Source: Candidatus Sulfotelmatobacter sp.
GTDB taxonomy: Bacteria; Verrucomicrobiota; Verrucomicrobiia; Limisphaerales; UBA11358
Length of the DNA: 64,000 bases
Direction of reading: 5' to 3'
Assembly: GCA_035485115.1 (NCBI GenBank)
Contig: DATHOG010000219.1
Coordinates: forward strand, 5,075-69,074
Below, one piece after another: positions 11,702 through 19,813 of the stretch. The notes below the pieces were generated by a model. The model was not told the origin of the DNA, ran no database searches, and saw only the letters and a list, made by a program, of their open reading frames with translations. The position numbers were made by a program, and so were the translations under genes. Positions within the stretch are counted from its first letter, which is position 1, and each line of letters starts with the position of its first letter.

Positions 11702-11967
11702 ATCTTCCCTCCGCAGCAACGGCACAAAATTACTGGCTTGGTAAAATGGTAACCACCGCCGCCATACCACTGCATTTTGCTGCCATCAGTTGCAATAGGC
11801 AGACCCATTTGATCCCGCATATAATTAATATCGCGGTCGACGGTCTTAGGGTTCACCTCAAGCATATCGGCCAAAGCCCGACCGGTGACATGCTTGCCAT
11901 CGCTCAAGGCCGCGCAAATCTTTTGCAGCCTCACCACGGTTGGACGATGCGACTTGTGCGAGTTCAT
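11698..11967 (-). CDS. HTH DNA-binding regulator (HTH_11/DeoR-N-like)
   Basis: VTGRALADMLEVNPKTVDRDINYMRDQMGLPI helix-turn-helix; ATGA overlap with the dnaB stop. Confidence 0.6.
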   Translation of the reverse strand: MNSHKSHRPTVVRLQKICAALSDGKHVTGRALADMLEVNPKTVDRDINYMRDQMGLPIATDGSKMQWYGGGGYHFTKPVILCRCCGGKI

Positions 11968-13412
11968 CTTGCCGGCACATCCTCCGCGCTGAATTTGCTG
12001 GCCTGCTCGAAGCGCGTAAACGGTTTCAGGAACGTCAGATCAACATCGCCGGTCGGGCCGTTGCGTTGCTTGCCGATCACCAGCGTCACGGCACAGCCAT
12101 CGTTTTCGCTGGCCTTCAGCTCGTCGTCGTTCACATCCGGCCGGTAAAGGAACGCCACCAGGTCAGCATCCTGTTCGATGCTGCCGGATTCGCGCAGGTC
12201 GCTCATGCGCGGTTTGCGGTTTTTTTCCTTCTCGATGTCGCGATTCAATTGCGCCAGCACAACGATTGGCACATTCAATTCCTTGGACAACGCCTTGATG
12301 CCGGAAGACACCTCCGCCACTTCCTGCTGACGATTCTCCTTGGCCTTTTTGCTCGTGCTGTGCATGAGCTGGAGGTAGTCCACCACGAAAAGCTTTATGC
12401 CATGCTGCTGATGCATCCGGCGCGCCCGCGCGCGAAACTGAAGGATGGATAAAGCCGGCGTGTCGTCGAAGTGCAGCGGGGCCGCGTTGATCTTGCCGGC
12501 CGCATTTTGTAGCTTCGGAAAATCCGTCTCTGTCATGAATCCGTCGCGGATATTCCGCAGGTTCACCTTCGCCAGCGAACAGATCATGCGCAGCACCAAA
12601 GACTCGGCCGTCATCTCCAGGCTGAAGATTCCCACCGGCAACTTGACGACCAATGCCACGTGTTCCGCGATCTGGGTGGCGACGCTCGTCTTCCCCATTG
12701 CCGGCCGCGCCGCAATGACGATCATTTCGCCGCCGTGCAAACCGTCCGTCATTTTATCCAGGTCATCGAAGCCCGTAGCGATGCCGCTGATCTCGCCCTG
12801 GCGCTGAAAATACATATCAATCTTGCCGATGGCTGCGTGCACGAGGTCGTTCGTCTTCAGCGACCGGCCGCCCACGCGGGCTTCGGCGATTCTAAAAAAC
12901 TCCTTTTCCGATTCATCCAACAGATCTTCCACTTCGCCTTCATTATCGAAGATGCGTCCAACGATGCCGGTGCAGGTGACCATCAGCCGGCGCAACAGGA
13001 ATTTATCCTTCAGCTTTTCGAGATAGAACGAACAATTGGCCGAGCTTGGCACCACATCCTGCAACTGGCTCAAATACGCGATGTCGCCGATCTGTTTCAG
13101 TAGATCACGATCCTTCAGATGCTGTTGCACCGTCATAATTTCGACCGGCGTGCGCGCCTCGAACATCGCCACGAGGGTTTCATAAACCGTTTGATGCCGC
13201 AGATCGTAGAACGCCAGCTTGCCGTCGTCCTTCAACGCCTCGATGCACAGCGCGATGCATTCGTTCGGATCGAGCAGGCAGCAACCGAGGACGCCCATCT
13301 CCATCTGAAGATCATGCGGCGGCAGCCGGTCCACAGTCGGCGTGACCGCCCGGTCGCCACGACGCCGGGCCTTTTTCAGATCAGCAATCGGATTGGAGAT
13401 TGAATCAATCAT
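11964..13412 (-). CDS. dnaB: Replicative DNA helicase DnaB (phage-encoded)
   Basis: 482 aa; N-terminal PPHDLQMEMGVLGCCLLDPNE; Walker A ARPAMGKTS; Walker B FVVDYLQLM; full DnaB N- and C-domains. Confidence 0.9.
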   Translation of the reverse strand: MIDSISNPIADLKKARRRGDRAVTPTVDRLPPHDLQMEMGVLGCCLLDPNECIALCIEALKDDGKLAFYDLRHQTVYETLVAMFEARTPVEIMTVQQHLKDRDLLKQIGDIAYLSQLQDVVPSSANCSFYLEKLKDKFLLRRLMVTCTGIVGRIFDNEGEVEDLLDESEKEFFRIAEARVGGRSLKTNDLVHAAIGKIDMYFQRQGEISGIATGFDDLDKMTDGLHGGEMIVIAARPAMGKTSVATQIAEHVALVVKLPVGIFSLEMTAESLVLRMICSLAKVNLRNIRDGFMTETDFPKLQNAAGKINAAPLHFDDTPALSILQFRARARRMHQQHGIKLFVVDYLQLMHSTSKKAKENRQQEVAEVSSGIKALSKELNVPIVVLAQLNRDIEKEKNRKPRMSDLRESGSIEQDADLVAFLYRPDVNDDELKASENDGCAVTLVIGKQRNGPTGDVDLTFLKPFTRFEQASKFSAEDVPAR

Positions 13413-13415
13413 AAA

Positions 13416-13781
13416 TCACCAGCTCACCAAATGCGGTTTGCCTGGCAGCGGCAGACCATAGGTTTGGATGAAAAACACGCGCAGATGGTCGGCGCTGGCG
13501 AAGCCATCCGCTTTAGCCAGGCGTTCCTGTTCTAATAATGAAAGCTTCCTGCCGCCAACGATGATGTCTTTCGGGGTGATCTGGATCGGCTGACAAGCCC
13601 GGCAAGCGGGCTGTTTCAAACATTGGCATTTGCTGGACCGCATTCCGGTGAAAAGGTTCAACGGATCGCCCTTCTCCGGCGGCAATGTTTTGCCGAAGAT
13701 GCGGATGGTGGATGTCTTCACGCCGCTTTGCACCATCGGCGCGAACCGAGCTTGAAAATTGAACGTGTTTTGTTTTCTCAT
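13416..13781 (-). CDS. ASCH-domain-like protein
   Basis: MRKQNTFNFQARFAPMVQSGVKTSTIR resembles the ASCH N-terminal motif; high GC3 in this frame; start uncertain (ATG 13781 or GTG 13808). Confidence 0.5.
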   Translation of the reverse strand: MRKQNTFNFQARFAPMVQSGVKTSTIRIFGKTLPPEKGDPLNLFTGMRSSKCQCLKQPACRACQPIQITPKDIIVGGRKLSLLEQERLAKADGFASADHLRVFFIQTYGLPLPGKPHLVSW

Positions 13782-14031
13782 AAATTTTGCTGTGCTTGTA
13801 TATGACACATTTGATCAGGTGTTGCTTTTCCATCCATTCAATGCAGTCTGCGACCTGGTATTCGTTCGGTACGAGTAACGGCCAACGGCGTTGCAACGCG
13901 ATACTGATTTGCACGGTTGAGAACCGGCCCGGCCAGCCGGCGACGAGCCGGCGGATCGCACCGGCCACGCCGCCCCGTTGGAACACGAGGTCGGCAATGG
14001 CTGCGATGCGTGCGTTTTCCCTTTCGCCCAT
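13513..14031 (-). CDS. Hypothetical phage protein; only the 5' ~230 nt look coding
   Basis: N-terminal ~80 aa have coding-like GC3. The remainder overlaps the ASCH gene out of frame with poor GC3. Confidence 0.35.
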   Translation of the reverse strand: MGERENARIAAIADLVFQRGGVAGAIRRLVAGWPGRFSTVQISIALQRRWPLLVPNEYQVADCIEWMEKQHLIKCVIYKHSKIYEKTKHVQFSSSVRADGAKRREDIHHPHLRQNIAAGEGRSVEPFHRNAVQQMPMFETARLPGLSADPDHPERHHRWRQEAFIIRTGTPG

Positions 14032-14044
14032 GTTGATGTCTGGA

Positions 14045-14716
14045 TCATTTCTTCTTGGTGAAAACCTTTGCCGCCGCGACTTGGAGTTCCACGAATTGGT
14101 CGATCCACTCGACCGCTTTCTTGGCGAAGGGATTTTTTTCCGGTATGCCGCCCGGACGTATTTGGAGGAAGTAGCGTTCCGCCATGCGGCTCGCGTTCGG
14201 TTTTAAAATTCCAAGATTTTCGATCTGGCATTTGCGGCCATTGGCAATGGTGCCAACCAGGCATGCGCATTCGCCCGTATAAGTCGAACCATTGACTTTG
14301 CCATCAACCAACGCCTTGCGCAGGAACTTAACTTCATCTGGAACGGTGAGGAGAATGGACCAGAGATCGTCGCGGCATTGAATGAACCATTGTTCAGGAA
14401 TTGCCTTGAACGATTTTTCGTCGAAGCTGCTGTTGTCGAAGCTGCTGTTGTCGAAGCGGCTGTTGTAGAAGCGGCTGTTGTCGAAGCGGCTGTTGTAGAA
14501 GCTGCTGTTGTCGAAGCGGCTGTTGTCGAAGCTGCTGTTGTCGAAGCGGCTGTTTTTGCAGTTCACTTCAATGCCAGAAAAATCCTTATCAGATAGATCT
14601 GCACATTCGAATTTCTGACCAGCCTCAACTGCGGCCTTGAACGCAATTTTCCAATCTGCTCCCTCCAGCGTGAACATCACTTTTTTGGTGATCCAGTTTT
14701 TAATCTCGAATTTCAT
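14045..14716 (-). CDS. Pentapeptide-repeat protein with C-terminal globular domain
   Basis: About 10 consecutive NS[RS]F[DY] pentapeptides, encoded by nine near-identical 15-nt DNA repeats; N- and C-terminal non-repeat domains. Confidence 0.85.
   Translation of the reverse strand: MKFEIKNWITKKVMFTLEGADWKIAFKAAVEAGQKFECADLSDKDFSGIEVNCKNSRFDNSSFDNSRFDNSSFYNSRFDNSRFYNSRFDNSSFDNSSFDEKSFKAIPEQWFIQCRDDLWSILLTVPDEVKFLRKALVDGKVNGSTYTGECACLVGTIANGRKCQIENLGILKPNASRMAERYFLQIRPGGIPEKNPFAKKAVEWIDQFVELQVAAAKVFTKKK
14421..14555. repeat. Nine tandem 15-nt repeats (TCGAAGCKGCTGTTG) inside the pentapeptide gene
   Basis: Direct reading: units at 14421, 14436, 14451 ... 14541 differ at only 1-2 positions. Confidence 0.95.
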
Positions 14717-14760
14717 TTTTTCTCCTGTTTGTTTTGGTTAATGGTTGATGGTGAAAATTT

Positions 14761-16328: not shown

Positions 16329-17423
16329 TCAGCGCGGGGCGAATTTCTTGATGCGGTTCATCTCCAGCACGGATTTCTCAACGGCCCGTTCAACCTCAAC
16401 GAGCGTGGCTCCCGTGGATTTTGCCAGCCGTTTGGCCACGCGGTTGATCAGGCTGAAGTGACCAAATTCCGAGGCTGACCGGGCGATGATGTCCAAAGCC
16501 GCATCGCGGTCCTCGAACTGGTCGGCTTCAAAAAACAGGCCCGCGTCCTCGCTGTTGATCACGGTGATCTTGATCACCGCCCGCGTGCGCCGGTCCAGTT
16601 GATCCGCCTCGTCCGGGCAGTAGGCGTGCATGTTCTTGTCCGCAATCGGCGTGTTGGTGATGAACAGCACCAGCTTGGAGCGGTTCAGCAGATCGATGAA
16701 CAGGTTGAGCGCGTAGGTGCGCAGGAAGCGGCCCTCTTCCAGGAAGATCAGGTACGGCCGTTTTTGAAGGAAGTCCACGATCATATCTTCCACCGCCGGC
16801 ACCGAATCCAGCTTGATCTGGTCCTTGGTATCCGTCCCGCTGCCGTGCCTGGTCTGGCGGTACTCTTCGGGAATGCGGATTTTAAGACCGTCGCAAATAT
16901 CCTTCAGCACCACCGTCTTCGCACGCTGGCGCATGTCGCGGGATGACGGCCGCCACGAATCGCGGCAGTTCACCAGCCCCATCGTGAAATCATTTTTCAG
17001 CTCCTTCTGGAGATAGGGAAACAGCGTGCTCTTTGAAGCGCCGGTCGGGCCGATGTACTGGAAGCAACGCTCGGCCGTCTTCACGTTCTTCAGCGCACGC
17101 GCCATCTTGGCCGCACCCACGAAATAAGAGATCGGCTTGATGACCGTCTCCACCACCGAAAACTTTTCGCGCTTCTGGCGCGGCAGATCGTCCACGAACT
17201 CCGTAACATCGGCCATCAAGGTTTCAGGGTCGTTGATTTTGTTGAAGTAGCTCGTTGCGTCCTCATCCAGCGCATCCAGGATTTGCGAGAGCTTGCTCGG
17301 CGTGCCGATGGTCTCGTTCCCGAAATCGCGCACGAACTCGTTTTGATTGTCGCCGGACTCGGCCTTGAGCTTCAACAGCACCAGGCGTTGTTCGGGGTTC
17401 GGCTTCCAGTTATTTTTTGGCAT
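16329..17423 (-). CDS. MuB-like AAA+ ATPase (transposition target-capture protein)
   Basis: 364 aa immediately downstream of the transposase; Walker A GPTGASKST; Walker B YLIFLEEG; N-terminal HTH-like segment. Confidence 0.75.
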   Translation of the reverse strand: MPKNNWKPNPEQRLVLLKLKAESGDNQNEFVRDFGNETIGTPSKLSQILDALDEDATSYFNKINDPETLMADVTEFVDDLPRQKREKFSVVETVIKPISYFVGAAKMARALKNVKTAERCFQYIGPTGASKSTLFPYLQKELKNDFTMGLVNCRDSWRPSSRDMRQRAKTVVLKDICDGLKIRIPEEYRQTRHGSGTDTKDQIKLDSVPAVEDMIVDFLQKRPYLIFLEEGRFLRTYALNLFIDLLNRSKLVLFITNTPIADKNMHAYCPDEADQLDRRTRAVIKITVINSEDAGLFFEADQFEDRDAALDIIARSASEFGHFSLINRVAKRLAKSTGATLVEVERAVEKSVLEMNRIKKFAPR

Positions 17424-17447: not shown

Positions 17448-19634
17448 TTAAACGTCATCTTCGGACAAAATGTCTTGCAGGCAATCCGGCTCCGGCTCAA
17501 GCGCGGGCGGATTCTGTTGATTGGCTTTGGCGGTCGGTTTGATCGATGCCAGCCCTGCGCTCACGGCATTCCCGTTAAGAGTGCCTACGGCACCTGGCGC
17601 GTCGGTGACCACGATGAACTTCTTCAACTCGTCATTGTGCGCGCGCAGGGCATCCAGGCCGGTGCGTTCCGGCGCGGCCAGCTCCATCGCCACGGCCGTG
17701 GCGGCGGCGCGGGCCGCGTGCGTGTAGCGCAAGGCTTCGGCCAAAGCCTCGCGGTCCAGATACGCGGTGCGTCCGACCTGATACCAGGTGCCGAGAATGC
17801 GGCCGTCGCCGGAAGTGAGATGCAGGAACTGCGGATCGTTCCGGTGAAAATAGCAAAGCACCTTAGTCCCTGGCGCGAGCGGGTCGCCCGCGTGGCAGAA
17901 CGTTTTCGCTTCGCCGTCGATGTCGATCTTGATCTGGCCCTTGGCGGTCACGTATTCAACGCGCTCGTTGTGTTCGAGGAAGGTCTTGATGATGTCCGGC
18001 GAGCAACGGGTCCATTGATCGGCCGGCACGGCACGGATCAGCTCGGCGGCGCGTTCCACGGGCATCTGCATGCGCGGCTTCAACCATTGCGCGCCCGGCG
18101 GCAATGGATGCGGCGCGGTGTGGCTCGGCTGGCGTTTGCCATCGGCGTCGAGCCATTCCAGGACTTTGCCGAATCCCTCGATGTCATGTTCCGTGCGGAA
18201 ATTTTGATCCAGGCAAAACTGGCGGATGTACTTGTCAGATTCACCGTGCAAAACCGTGAGCGGATATTTCACATCGCCGCGTTTGTGTTCCGGCAACCGG
18301 TTGCGCATCTTCCAGATTTCCTTGCACTCCTTGATGCATGAATTGAGTTCAGCCGGCCGGATGCTGTAATGCGCGCCCGTCTGACCCGGCAGGAATGATC
18401 CTCGCGTATGCAGCAGGCGGTTGCCGGCTTCGTGGTCGCCCTTGCCACCGGAATTGCCCTTGGCCTTTTCCTTGTAGCCACGCGGACGGCTGGCGTTGCG
18501 GAAATCACCCTTCATGCTGTCGCCGATCATTGAGGTGTAGTGAACCTTGATCCGGTTGTTGAAGAGTTCGCCCAAGGCGAGCTTCACGGCCTCTTCGAGT
18601 GTCGCCGTGCCACGTTCAACGATCCAATGCACGAGATAGGGCGGCAGCGGATAAGTCTCCAGCAGTTGCGCCGCCAGCTCTTTCATCTGTTGCGCGCCCA
18701 GGTGCGAAGCCTTGCCTTCTTCGTCAATCGTTGCGGGATGCTTGACGTAGCCGAGGATCAAGCCCGTCGCCCGGTCGCGCGCCACGAGCAACCAAAGGTC
18801 TTCGGCCTCGCCGGTCGCTTCGTTGAAAACCAGCCAGTCCAATTTCACGTCGTCGAACGTGACGATTTCGAGAAAACGCAGATCACCCTTTTTACCGAGC
18901 ACGCCGGGCAATAGCGACCGGGCGGCGGATTCGCCTTCGTGCAACAAGGCGCGGACGGCCGGCGTGAAGCGGCCACGGCCCTTGATCTGGCGCAGGATAT
19001 TGTCGTAGCTCCAGCCAACGGGGAAAATTTCGCGGTTGCGATTTTTCCAGCCGGCTTCATAACCGGCGATGACGGCCTCGTTGCCCTGTTCATCTCTGCC
19101 GGTCTTCCATTGCCGTTTAAGGCTCAATAAAGCCTGCTTCTTGCCGTCGTTGCGTTTGTACTGGCCAAAGCGGATTTCGACCAGCTTAAGAAATTCCTCG
19201 GGCAATCCGGCTGTGCCCATCCGGAAGGATCGCCAGCAGGCGGGGGCTTTTGCGCAATTCACCAGGACCACCCAATCGCGCACCTTTGCCCAGGCATCAT
19301 ACTTTTGACGAAAGGTCGCCAGCTTCCAGTTCCAAGTTTTGTAAACCGCCAGCGCCTGCTTGCATGCCGCCTGGACGGAAAATTGATCCTTCACCAAACC
19401 CGCCACGTAATGGACGGCCCGCACCAGCGCCTTCAGCTCGCCCTGCAACTTCGCCGGCAAGGTGATGAGCAAATGTTCCTCGCCGAGGTAATGCGGCCGG
19501 GCATCACGCGTGGCCAGGTACTGCGAAACATTCGCCACCGGCTGAACCGCCGCCGCCAGACCAAGGCCGGCAAGCACGGACGTTTCACGTGGAACAATTG
19601 CGCCGCCGTTGGTTGTGGTGAGGTCGGAGATCAT
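17448..19634 (-). CDS. MuA-like DDE transposase
   Basis: 728 aa from the ATG at 19634 (ATGA overlap with the upstream ORF); rve-type core (FDDVKLD ... LLVARDRATG ... IVERGT) and a long C-terminal domain; followed by the MuB-like gene. Confidence 0.85.
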   Translation of the reverse strand: MISDLTTTNGGAIVPRETSVLAGLGLAAAVQPVANVSQYLATRDARPHYLGEEHLLITLPAKLQGELKALVRAVHYVAGLVKDQFSVQAACKQALAVYKTWNWKLATFRQKYDAWAKVRDWVVLVNCAKAPACWRSFRMGTAGLPEEFLKLVEIRFGQYKRNDGKKQALLSLKRQWKTGRDEQGNEAVIAGYEAGWKNRNREIFPVGWSYDNILRQIKGRGRFTPAVRALLHEGESAARSLLPGVLGKKGDLRFLEIVTFDDVKLDWLVFNEATGEAEDLWLLVARDRATGLILGYVKHPATIDEEGKASHLGAQQMKELAAQLLETYPLPPYLVHWIVERGTATLEEAVKLALGELFNNRIKVHYTSMIGDSMKGDFRNASRPRGYKEKAKGNSGGKGDHEAGNRLLHTRGSFLPGQTGAHYSIRPAELNSCIKECKEIWKMRNRLPEHKRGDVKYPLTVLHGESDKYIRQFCLDQNFRTEHDIEGFGKVLEWLDADGKRQPSHTAPHPLPPGAQWLKPRMQMPVERAAELIRAVPADQWTRCSPDIIKTFLEHNERVEYVTAKGQIKIDIDGEAKTFCHAGDPLAPGTKVLCYFHRNDPQFLHLTSGDGRILGTWYQVGRTAYLDREALAEALRYTHAARAAATAVAMELAAPERTGLDALRAHNDELKKFIVVTDAPGAVGTLNGNAVSAGLASIKPTAKANQQNPPALEPEPDCLQDILSEDDV

Positions 19635-19813
19635 GAATTTGAATGAACCGATTGGGTGCGATATGTCCGAACGTCGCAGGCGTAGTTTGAGCAGTTCATA
19701 TCGGACGAATCCTTGCGCTTGGTCCCTTTCTGGCCGCACGCCGGACATTTACCGCCCGATGAGAGCTTGAATTTTTCCAGAGGCTTTTTGCCATGCGTTA
19801 ACACCCTGCTCAC
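19631..19813 (-). CDS. Small zinc-ribbon protein
   Basis: 60 aa, CPACG...C..YAC. Confidence 0.45.
   Translation of the reverse strand: MSRVLTHGKKPLEKFKLSSGGKCPACGQKGTKRKDSSDMNCSNYACDVRTYRTQSVHSNS

Follow-up and report, generated by a model that had tools for sequence, protein, structure and literature searches.

A phage pentapeptide-repeat protein with an orphan CxC domain and a hypervariable repeat tract prone to domain swaps

The window analysed here, a 64,000-nucleotide stretch of contig DATHOG010000219.1 from Candidatus Sulfotelmatobacter sp. (assembly GCA_035485115.1), contains a prophage with terminase, portal and protease genes on the plus strand and an early operon on the minus strand. 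The host is a Verrucomicrobiota metagenome-assembled genome (MAG), to judge by a chromosomal protein encoded in the flank, which reaches 88% identity to Limisphaerales/subdivision-3 MAGs. One gene of this operon, present as a first-pass annotation made from the DNA letters had described it, encodes a pentapeptide-repeat protein of 223 amino acids that is composed of an N-terminal cap, a repeat tract and a C-terminal domain, hereafter the CxC domain (Table 1). A second assembly record encodes the identical 223-amino-acid product, also with nine repeat units of 15 nucleotides. One public gene call (P0001) begins at Met14 and yields a product of 210 amino acids, the 223-amino-acid form being represented by P0329 (window positions 14678-14716, minus strand). 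We favour the longer form because its start codon is preceded by an AGGAG site and because residues 1-13 are homologous to the N terminus of the family, whose cap is conserved throughout as MKFEIKNRWSG.V.F..E..S.K.A.EAAVK. No signal sequence is evident in the protein, and no sigma-70-type promoter or terminator was found adjoining the gene on its own strand.

Table 1. Features of the pentapeptide-repeat gene and its product (window coordinates).
Feature	Position	Strand	Basis and details
Whole gene, three-module protein	14045..14716	minus	223 amino acids, stop codon included; open reading frame (ORF) list and sequence
Shine-Dalgarno site AGGAG	14722..14726	minus	5 bases 5' of the ATG at 14716; sequence reading
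N-terminal cap, residues 1-34	14615..14716	minus	AlphaFold2: beta-hairpin E2-7/E13-18 and helix H22-31
Pentapeptide-repeat beta-helix, residues 35-104	14405..14614	minus	14 pentapeptides, about 3.5 coils (predicted); PF13576, Foldseek
Nine near-identical in-frame 15-nucleotide units, residues 55-99	14420..14554	minus	Tandem Repeats Finder, unit table, chance test
C-terminal helical domain, orphan CxC domain, residues 105-223	14048..14404	minus	AlphaFold2 model of the domain alone
Invariant core motif G143-S-T-Y146-T-G148-E-C150-A-C152-L-V-G155-T156	14249..14290	minus	Invariant columns of alignments A1, A2 and A3

The repeat part had been predicted to form a pentapeptide-repeat beta-helix with phenylalanine at the centre position, and family scores, structural modelling and superposition all support this assignment. 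The protein scores above the gathering cut-off of the Pfam family Pentapeptide_3 (PF13576; 30.4 bits versus 27), with the scores for Pentapeptide (PF00805; 17.4 versus 20.2 bits) and Pentapeptide_4 (PF13599; 26.9 versus 38 bits) lying under theirs. AlphaFold2 modelling of the full-length protein from a 45-sequence alignment (predicted local distance difference test score, pLDDT, 91.5; predicted template modelling score, pTM, 0.78) resolved three parts, a hairpin-plus-helix cap (residues 1-34), a beta-helix (about residues 35-104) with block-mean pLDDT values of 85-95, and a helical domain (residues 105-220). Foldseek superposed the modelled beta-helix on that of 2g0y with a root-mean-square deviation of 1.2 A over 62 columns, on AlbG (2xt2) with 1.4 A over 62 columns and on MfpA (2bm5) with 1.6 A over 64 columns, and the best viral structure matches of the model are phage pentapeptide proteins. 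The protein thus combines the marks of the pentapeptide-repeat family, namely a five-residue repeat with a hydrophobic centre (position i) and a small residue at i-2, a curated family score and the fold. We conclude that the 14 pentapeptides of the repeat part are firmly predicted to fold into a short, right-handed quadrilateral beta-helix.

At the DNA level, the core of this helix is encoded by the only array that Tandem Repeats Finder detected in the region (period 15, 9.0 copies, 92% matches, score 228). The first-pass annotation had the number of units right and their position, 14421-14555, one base off. The unit reads AAC AGC [C/A]GC TTC [G/T]AC and encodes NS[RS]F[DY], with variation confined to the R/S and D/Y sites. 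A pattern spanning two units, AACAGCMGCTTCKACAACAGC, occurs eight times in the 64-kb window, every time within the repeat tract, compared with none expected from 100 dinucleotide-preserving shuffles. When the degenerate flanking units are included, all 14 units (residues 35-104) follow the register S(i-2)-[RS](i-1)-F(i)-[DY](i+1)-N(i+2). Given this register and the general description of the fold, from which the inward and outward assignment of repeat positions is taken (PMC10886550), the inward-pointing positions are fixed and two outward-pointing positions are dimorphic. The possibility that the tract is the target of a diversity-generating retroelement was rejected, as no second copy of the unit or template lies in the 64-kb window; a reverse transcriptase was not searched for. 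On the opposite strand, a 72-amino-acid ORF (14378-14596, plus strand) reads (VVEAA)n and is a shadow of the repeat tract, not a gene.

A word-index search with the 223-amino-acid protein yielded 93 homologues. Eleven pairs of protein alleles among the database hits have flanks that are 98-100% identical. Nine of the eleven pairs differ in unit number (29/18, 16/12, 18/14 in two pairs, 11/6 in three pairs, 9/5 and 8/4), and the other two have equal numbers of units but differ in how R/S and D/Y/N are arranged along them. In a set of 87 full-length relatives, the number of pentapeptides in the tract lies between 0 and 40 (median 12). In addition, the gene runs into the contig end within the pentapeptide tract at 28 of 75 viral loci from IMG/VR (L007-L086), and such assembler breaks show that repeats at the DNA level are general in the family and that copy numbers taken from assemblies are soft. 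The earlier suggestion that the 15-nucleotide tract is a substrate for rapid length change is therefore borne out by near-identical-flank alleles that differ in unit number and by contigs that break in the tract, and the check proposed along with it, a comparison of repeat number among relatives, gave polymorphism in the nine allele pairs named above. As a result, truncation of family genes is systematic in viral databases, and where a genome is circular or permuted, the point of opening tends to fall at this gene.

Synonymous codons tell a similar story about the units themselves. The window gene repeats AAC AGC MGC TTC KAC nine times, whereas a relative at another locus (L006) repeats AAC TCG MGC TTT KAC 34 times; both encode the same NSSFD, NSRFD and NSSFY units and vary at the same two dimorphic sites, and the codons for the fixed serine and phenylalanine differ between the two genes while being uniform within each. 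Because synonymous codons are uniform within and different between genes, this pattern is one of concerted evolution at the DNA level combined with selection on the peptide. As judged by these comparisons among relatives, the tract is a hotspot of in-frame slippage and recombination that changes both the number of units and the R/S-D/Y mosaic.

The same tract separates modules with different histories. The 13 best matches to residues 1-54 of the window protein (74-87% identity) all bear an unrelated C-domain, and the best matches to its own C-domain (59-75% identity) have N-terminal caps that are only 33-57% identical or unmatched. Among the homologues found, four unrelated C-domain families sit on the shared scaffold of N-terminal cap and NSxF repeats, and the version with a DUF5758 C-domain is present in 152 mycobacteriophage records. 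Looking for allelic replacement of the C-domain at one and the same locus, we found that a close relative by its N-terminal cap (P0019) lies in a different phage backbone. The comparison of relatives thus shows the tract as a junction at which N-terminal caps and at least four unrelated C-domains were exchanged.

With four pentapeptides to a coil, an R/S-D/Y mosaic ordered with period 4 would be specific to the faces of the helix. Such order is significant in P0009 (lag-4 match 0.94, p<0.001) and P0102 only, and face-specific ordering was rejected as a general feature, being absent in the window protein and most members. In P0009, a metagenomic protein of 288 amino acids, we noted a higher-order repeat of four units, NSRFY NSSFD NSSFY NSSFY, which corresponds to one coil of the beta-helix and would paint face-specific Arg/Tyr and Asp stripes along the rod.

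The C-terminal domain, which had been singled out earlier as a distinct Cys-containing domain of unassigned function, retains that status after family, profile and fold searches, none of which names a relative. Modelled alone with AlphaFold2, it reaches a pLDDT of 93.9 and a pTM of 0.84, and it ends with a long helix (H196-220). G143, Y146, G148, C150, C152, G155, T156 and E180 are invariant in alignments A1, A2 and A3; R177 shows no change in the domain alignment A2 and is conserved to at least 90% in the other two, and D117, E128, P178, F183, I186 and W204 vary little or not at all in the C-domain alignments. The domain has no match in Pfam, PHROGs or PADLOC, and only sub-threshold chance matches in NCBIfam (best E 0.0093, in one member). 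Against PDB chains it gave no match with phmmer and none at E<=10 in a profile search, and the best Foldseek match of its fold in the PDB had an E value of 2.7 and a probability of 0.06. The CxC domain is thus uncharacterised, and neither its sequence, nor its profile, nor its fold ties it to any family or structure in Pfam, NCBIfam, PADLOC or the PDB.

Relatives of the window protein are numerous and widespread. An exhaustive profile-free search returned 1077 representative clusters (defined at 50% identity) at E<=1e-3, of which 700 remain at E<=1e-10; in most, the alignment covers the C-domain. In addition, 236 viral contigs in IMG/VR carry a relative. One strict peptide pattern located 45 genome loci in at least nine phyla (Pseudomonadota, Verrucomicrobiota, Acidobacteriota, Planctomycetota, Bacteroidota, Gemmatimonadota, Bacillota, Actinomycetota and Cyanobacteriota), across which the C-domain is 38-58% identical. 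Among isolated phages, tblastn with the window protein reached only Bordetella phage vB_BaM-IFTN6. Its gp49 (UOK17382.1, annotated as pentapeptide repeat family protein) aligns with 96% of the window protein at 34% identity (E 2e-26), no other full-length relative having been found in an isolated phage, and shares with the window protein the three modules and the early-region position, but it has canonical repeats of the A[DN]L type and belongs to a lambdoid-type phage with a repressor, RecET and Lar.

The placement of the window gene in the early operon of a prophage, as annotated at first, is supported by the transposase match nearby and by the terminase and portal genes on the other strand. 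The operon holds a match to a Mu-type transposase 2.7 kb from the gene and a DnaB helicase two genes away. As to the more specific claim of a transposable, Mu-like phage, the putative transposase, a 766-amino-acid ORF at 17448-19748 (minus strand), matches the PHROG family phrog_310, 'transposase', over residues 97-334 (E 1.4e-9) but no Pfam model and no sequence in the PDB; a MuB-type ATPase was not recovered, the 364-amino-acid ORF in the position expected for MuB (16329-17423, minus strand) having no match in Pfam, PHROGs, PADLOC or the PDB.

Relatives occupy the early regions of quite different temperate phages, which are mostly of lambdoid type with integrases and RecT/ERF modules and not Mu-like. 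The Bordetella phage gene follows the repressor gene and lies near Ea22, HNH, RecET and Lar; at locus L004 the relative sits between YqaJ and RecT, inside the recombination module, and at L005 it is found near ERF, again inside the recombination module and with a second pentapeptide gene close by. Of two further relatives, one adjoins an exonuclease gene and ParB and the other follows DnaB and SSB. The commonest neighbours are CI/LexA-type repressors, ERF, SSB, NinB, PDDEXK and YqaJ exonucleases, and DnaB. Clustering of neighbours over about 85 loci revealed no conserved partner gene, the top family being present at 9 loci at most. From these diverse non-Mu settings and the lack of a conserved partner, we conclude that the link to Mu is incidental. 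Some phages have two pentapeptide-repeat genes near each other, as at L005 (7238-7810 and 10001-10618), and at seven loci a second such gene lies directly upstream of the family member; such pairs may be either paralogues or a gene call split at the repeats.

What, then, might the protein do? Its features suit a quickly evolving accessory protein of phages better than a DNA mimic aimed at gyrase. The reading to which we give the most weight, tentatively and somewhat short of even confidence, is that the gene product works early and on its own, as an accessory factor in host interaction or counter-defence. The conserved C-domain would contribute the constant function, be it binding or Cys-dependent chemistry, and its target would be shared by widely different hosts. 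The beta-helix would form a rigid rod whose length and outward-facing i-1 and i+1 residues could be re-tuned quickly by slippage and unequal recombination, so that the rod would offer a variable spacer or recognition surface and the C-domain would act as effector or anchor. In a more far-reaching proposal, which we regard as doubtful, the in-frame 15-nucleotide tracts would be a general phage recombination linker that retunes both length and surface of the rigid helix within a few generations and allows effector domains to be swapped between genes, and the CxC domain would be a counter-defence effector of a new fold with a target common to at least nine phyla.

By analogy, the closest functional precedent for the window protein may be the product of gene 24_60 of Vibrio phage 24, a pentapeptide-repeat protein whose hard-to-assemble repeat region was resolved by polymerase chain reaction (bioRxiv 10.1101/2024.07.02.601686). 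Phage 24 becomes strongly sensitised to the RexAB-like Sucellos system when 24_60 is deleted, and each of the six escapers had clustered changes in this gene, Y112R with N110N/N115D (bioRxiv 10.1101/2024.07.02.601686). Like the window protein, and as compared by published description only and not by sequence, 24_60 is a phage pentapeptide protein with DNA repeats in its gene. For 24_60, there is genetic evidence that a protein of this type counters a host defence and that repeat changes alter its potency. The broader anti-defence idea, which the first-pass annotation had also raised, appears plausible in the light of this analogy.

Several observations weigh against the counter-defence reading. 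The tblastn search that reached the Bordetella phage found no Vibrio phage. A C-domain that is about 50% identical over nine phyla is unusually conserved for counter-defence and might rather reflect a housekeeping function in the DNA metabolism of the phage. Because most members lack period-4 order, the surface pattern may be neutral and not a recognition code. Finally, the unit numbers derive from short-read assemblies, which may collapse repeats.

The housekeeping alternative can be stated more fully: the protein would be an accessory of phage DNA metabolism, for example a Gam-like inhibitor of a host exonuclease or a helper of ERF, RecT, SSB or DnaB, with the C-domain contacting a universally conserved component. 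The strong conservation of the C-domain across phyla fits a conserved target, and the gene recurs beside YqaJ, RecT, ERF, SSB, PDDEXK exonuclease, NinB and DnaB, lying two genes from DnaB in the window. However, any early accessory gene would adjoin such modules, no single neighbour is conserved (the top family occurs at 9 of about 85 loci), and hypervariability together with exchangeable parts is a design seen more often in conflict genes than in helpers of replication. We consider this explanation unlikely.

Rather unlikely, too, is that the gene serves prophage-borne defence or superinfection exclusion, expressed in the lysogen, with the helix sensing a component of the incoming phage and the C-domain acting as effector. 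In vB_BaM-IFTN6 the repressor gene and a TerB gene precede the family gene in the same orientation, and at seven loci a CI/LexA-type repressor is encoded upstream, likewise on the strand of the family gene. Pentapeptide repeats are moreover known in defence proteins, as indicated by a weak match to HalA, by the HalA structure 9nyi and by the sensor repeats of bacterial NACHT proteins. The HalA match is limited to the repeats, however, and reaches 21 bits against a cut-off of 250, and PADLOC models gave no match at E<=0.01 for the window protein and seven neighbours. The window gene itself is embedded in an early operon of lytic type, between the transposase module and DnaB and without a promoter or terminator of its own, and at L004 and L005 the gene lies within a recombination module.

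The first-pass annotation had put forward a DNA mimic of the Qnr/MfpA/AlbG type acting on gyrase, and the corresponding explanation, a B-DNA mimic that binds or modulates gyrase or another topoisomerase for a gyrase-dependent Mu-like phage, does not survive well. In proteins of this type, the solenoid has about 8-10 coils and makes up essentially the entire protein. The window protein shares with them the right-handed quadrilateral beta-helix, which superposes on AlbG and MfpA with deviations of 1.4-1.6 A over 62-64 columns, and a likely cytoplasmic location, but its helix has about 3.5 coils and accounts for 70 of 223 residues, a third of the chain, and in place of a dimerising helix it carries a globular C-domain of 119 residues. 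Gyrase-acting pentapeptide proteins are dimeric solenoids joined via C-terminal helices and expose DNA-like polar surfaces (PMC10886550). The window protein, by contrast, is basic (isoelectric point 8.65, net charge +4), and an acidic DNA-like surface is thus not indicated, as judged by net charge and not by a mapped surface. The helix part is mildly acidic (-3) and the overall net charge is negative in 69 of 87 family members, yet in the 87 full-length relatives neither the length of the tract nor its charge per unit (-1.07 to +0.63) is conserved. The NCBIfam model for MfpA, with a cut-off of 360 bits, reaches only 14.8 bits, and none of the Qnr models gives a match. Small phage gyrase inhibitors do exist, such as Igy and Gip (reviewed in PMC10886550), and a Mu-type transposase lies 2.7 kb away, but the family is found mainly in non-Mu temperate phages. 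Since the protein differs from gyrase-acting proteins on every testable point and the strongest constraint rests on the C-domain and not on the helix, we rate the gyrase explanation as improbable. Membership among the acidic phage DNA mimics of the Ocr and ArdA type was likewise rejected on the net charge of +4.

That the 15-bp direct repeats act as DNA, as origin iterons or as sites for a transposase or regulator, with coding being secondary, is very improbable, for although nine direct repeats lie near the DnaB gene and phage origins are sometimes embedded in genes, lambda gene O being an established case, relatives conserve the peptide unit but not the DNA unit, the unit number varies from 4 to about 40, the encoded helix folds with high confidence in the AlphaFold2 model, and the repeats are present in phages with unrelated replication modules.

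Other proteins combine pentapeptide repeats with a further domain and help to place the reading of an accessory factor with a variable helix and a fixed C-domain. In the DUF5758 phage proteins (for example Mycobacterium phage 244 gp59; Synechococcus phages B3 and B23), the C-domain belongs to PF19062, which is unrelated to the CxC domain and equally uncharacterised; we found no paper on DUF5758. The metagenomic DUF5758 members P0037 and P0078 have the same plan as the window protein, with the N-terminal cap, a tract of NSxF or other type and a C-terminal domain, whereas for the isolated phages the alignment covers the DUF5758 part only, the gene being annotated as pentapeptide repeat protein. 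SopA/NleL effectors and the F-box/U-box-pentapeptide proteins of giant viruses also join a repeat part to a separate domain, going by PDB entry titles and BFVD names, but this is a likeness of design only: there is no homology to the window protein outside the repeats, and they carry ubiquitin-ligase domains in contrast to the orphan C-domain described here. In proteins of the SopA/NleL type the beta-helix is a target-binding module.

Pentapeptide-repeat proteins are annotated in thousands of phages, and to our knowledge almost none has a known role. The pentapeptide-repeat class itself is known; what is new here is a phage member of it that is marked by the orphan CxC domain and a hypervariable, swap-prone tract. 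The comparisons define a large subfamily, with at least 700 clusters and 236 viral contigs, in which a constant orphan domain is joined to a variable tandem-repeat helix. As about a third of the genes in viral-contig databases are truncated by assembler breaks in the tract, the abundance and the repeat numbers of such genes are systematically misreported. If the counter-defence reading is true, the family would be a second and much broader example of the class opened by 24_60, and it would provide a simple model of how phages can diversify a binding module without a dedicated mutagenesis system.

Some features of the surrounding operon deserve mention in their own right. Just downstream of the gene, two ORFs (13416-13808 and 13513-14031, both on the minus strand) overlap out of frame by about 300 bases and have no Pfam, PHROG or PADLOC match. 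On the other side, the ORFs at 17448-19748 and 16329-17423 (both minus strand) make up a putative, highly diverged transposition module within this Verrucomicrobiota prophage. The same early operon encodes a complete replicative helicase of the DnaB family (11964-13412, minus strand; DnaB_C 329.7 bits, DnaB N-domain 79.8 bits), and since classical Mu depends on host replication proteins, a transposable-type phage with a DnaB of its own would be unusual.

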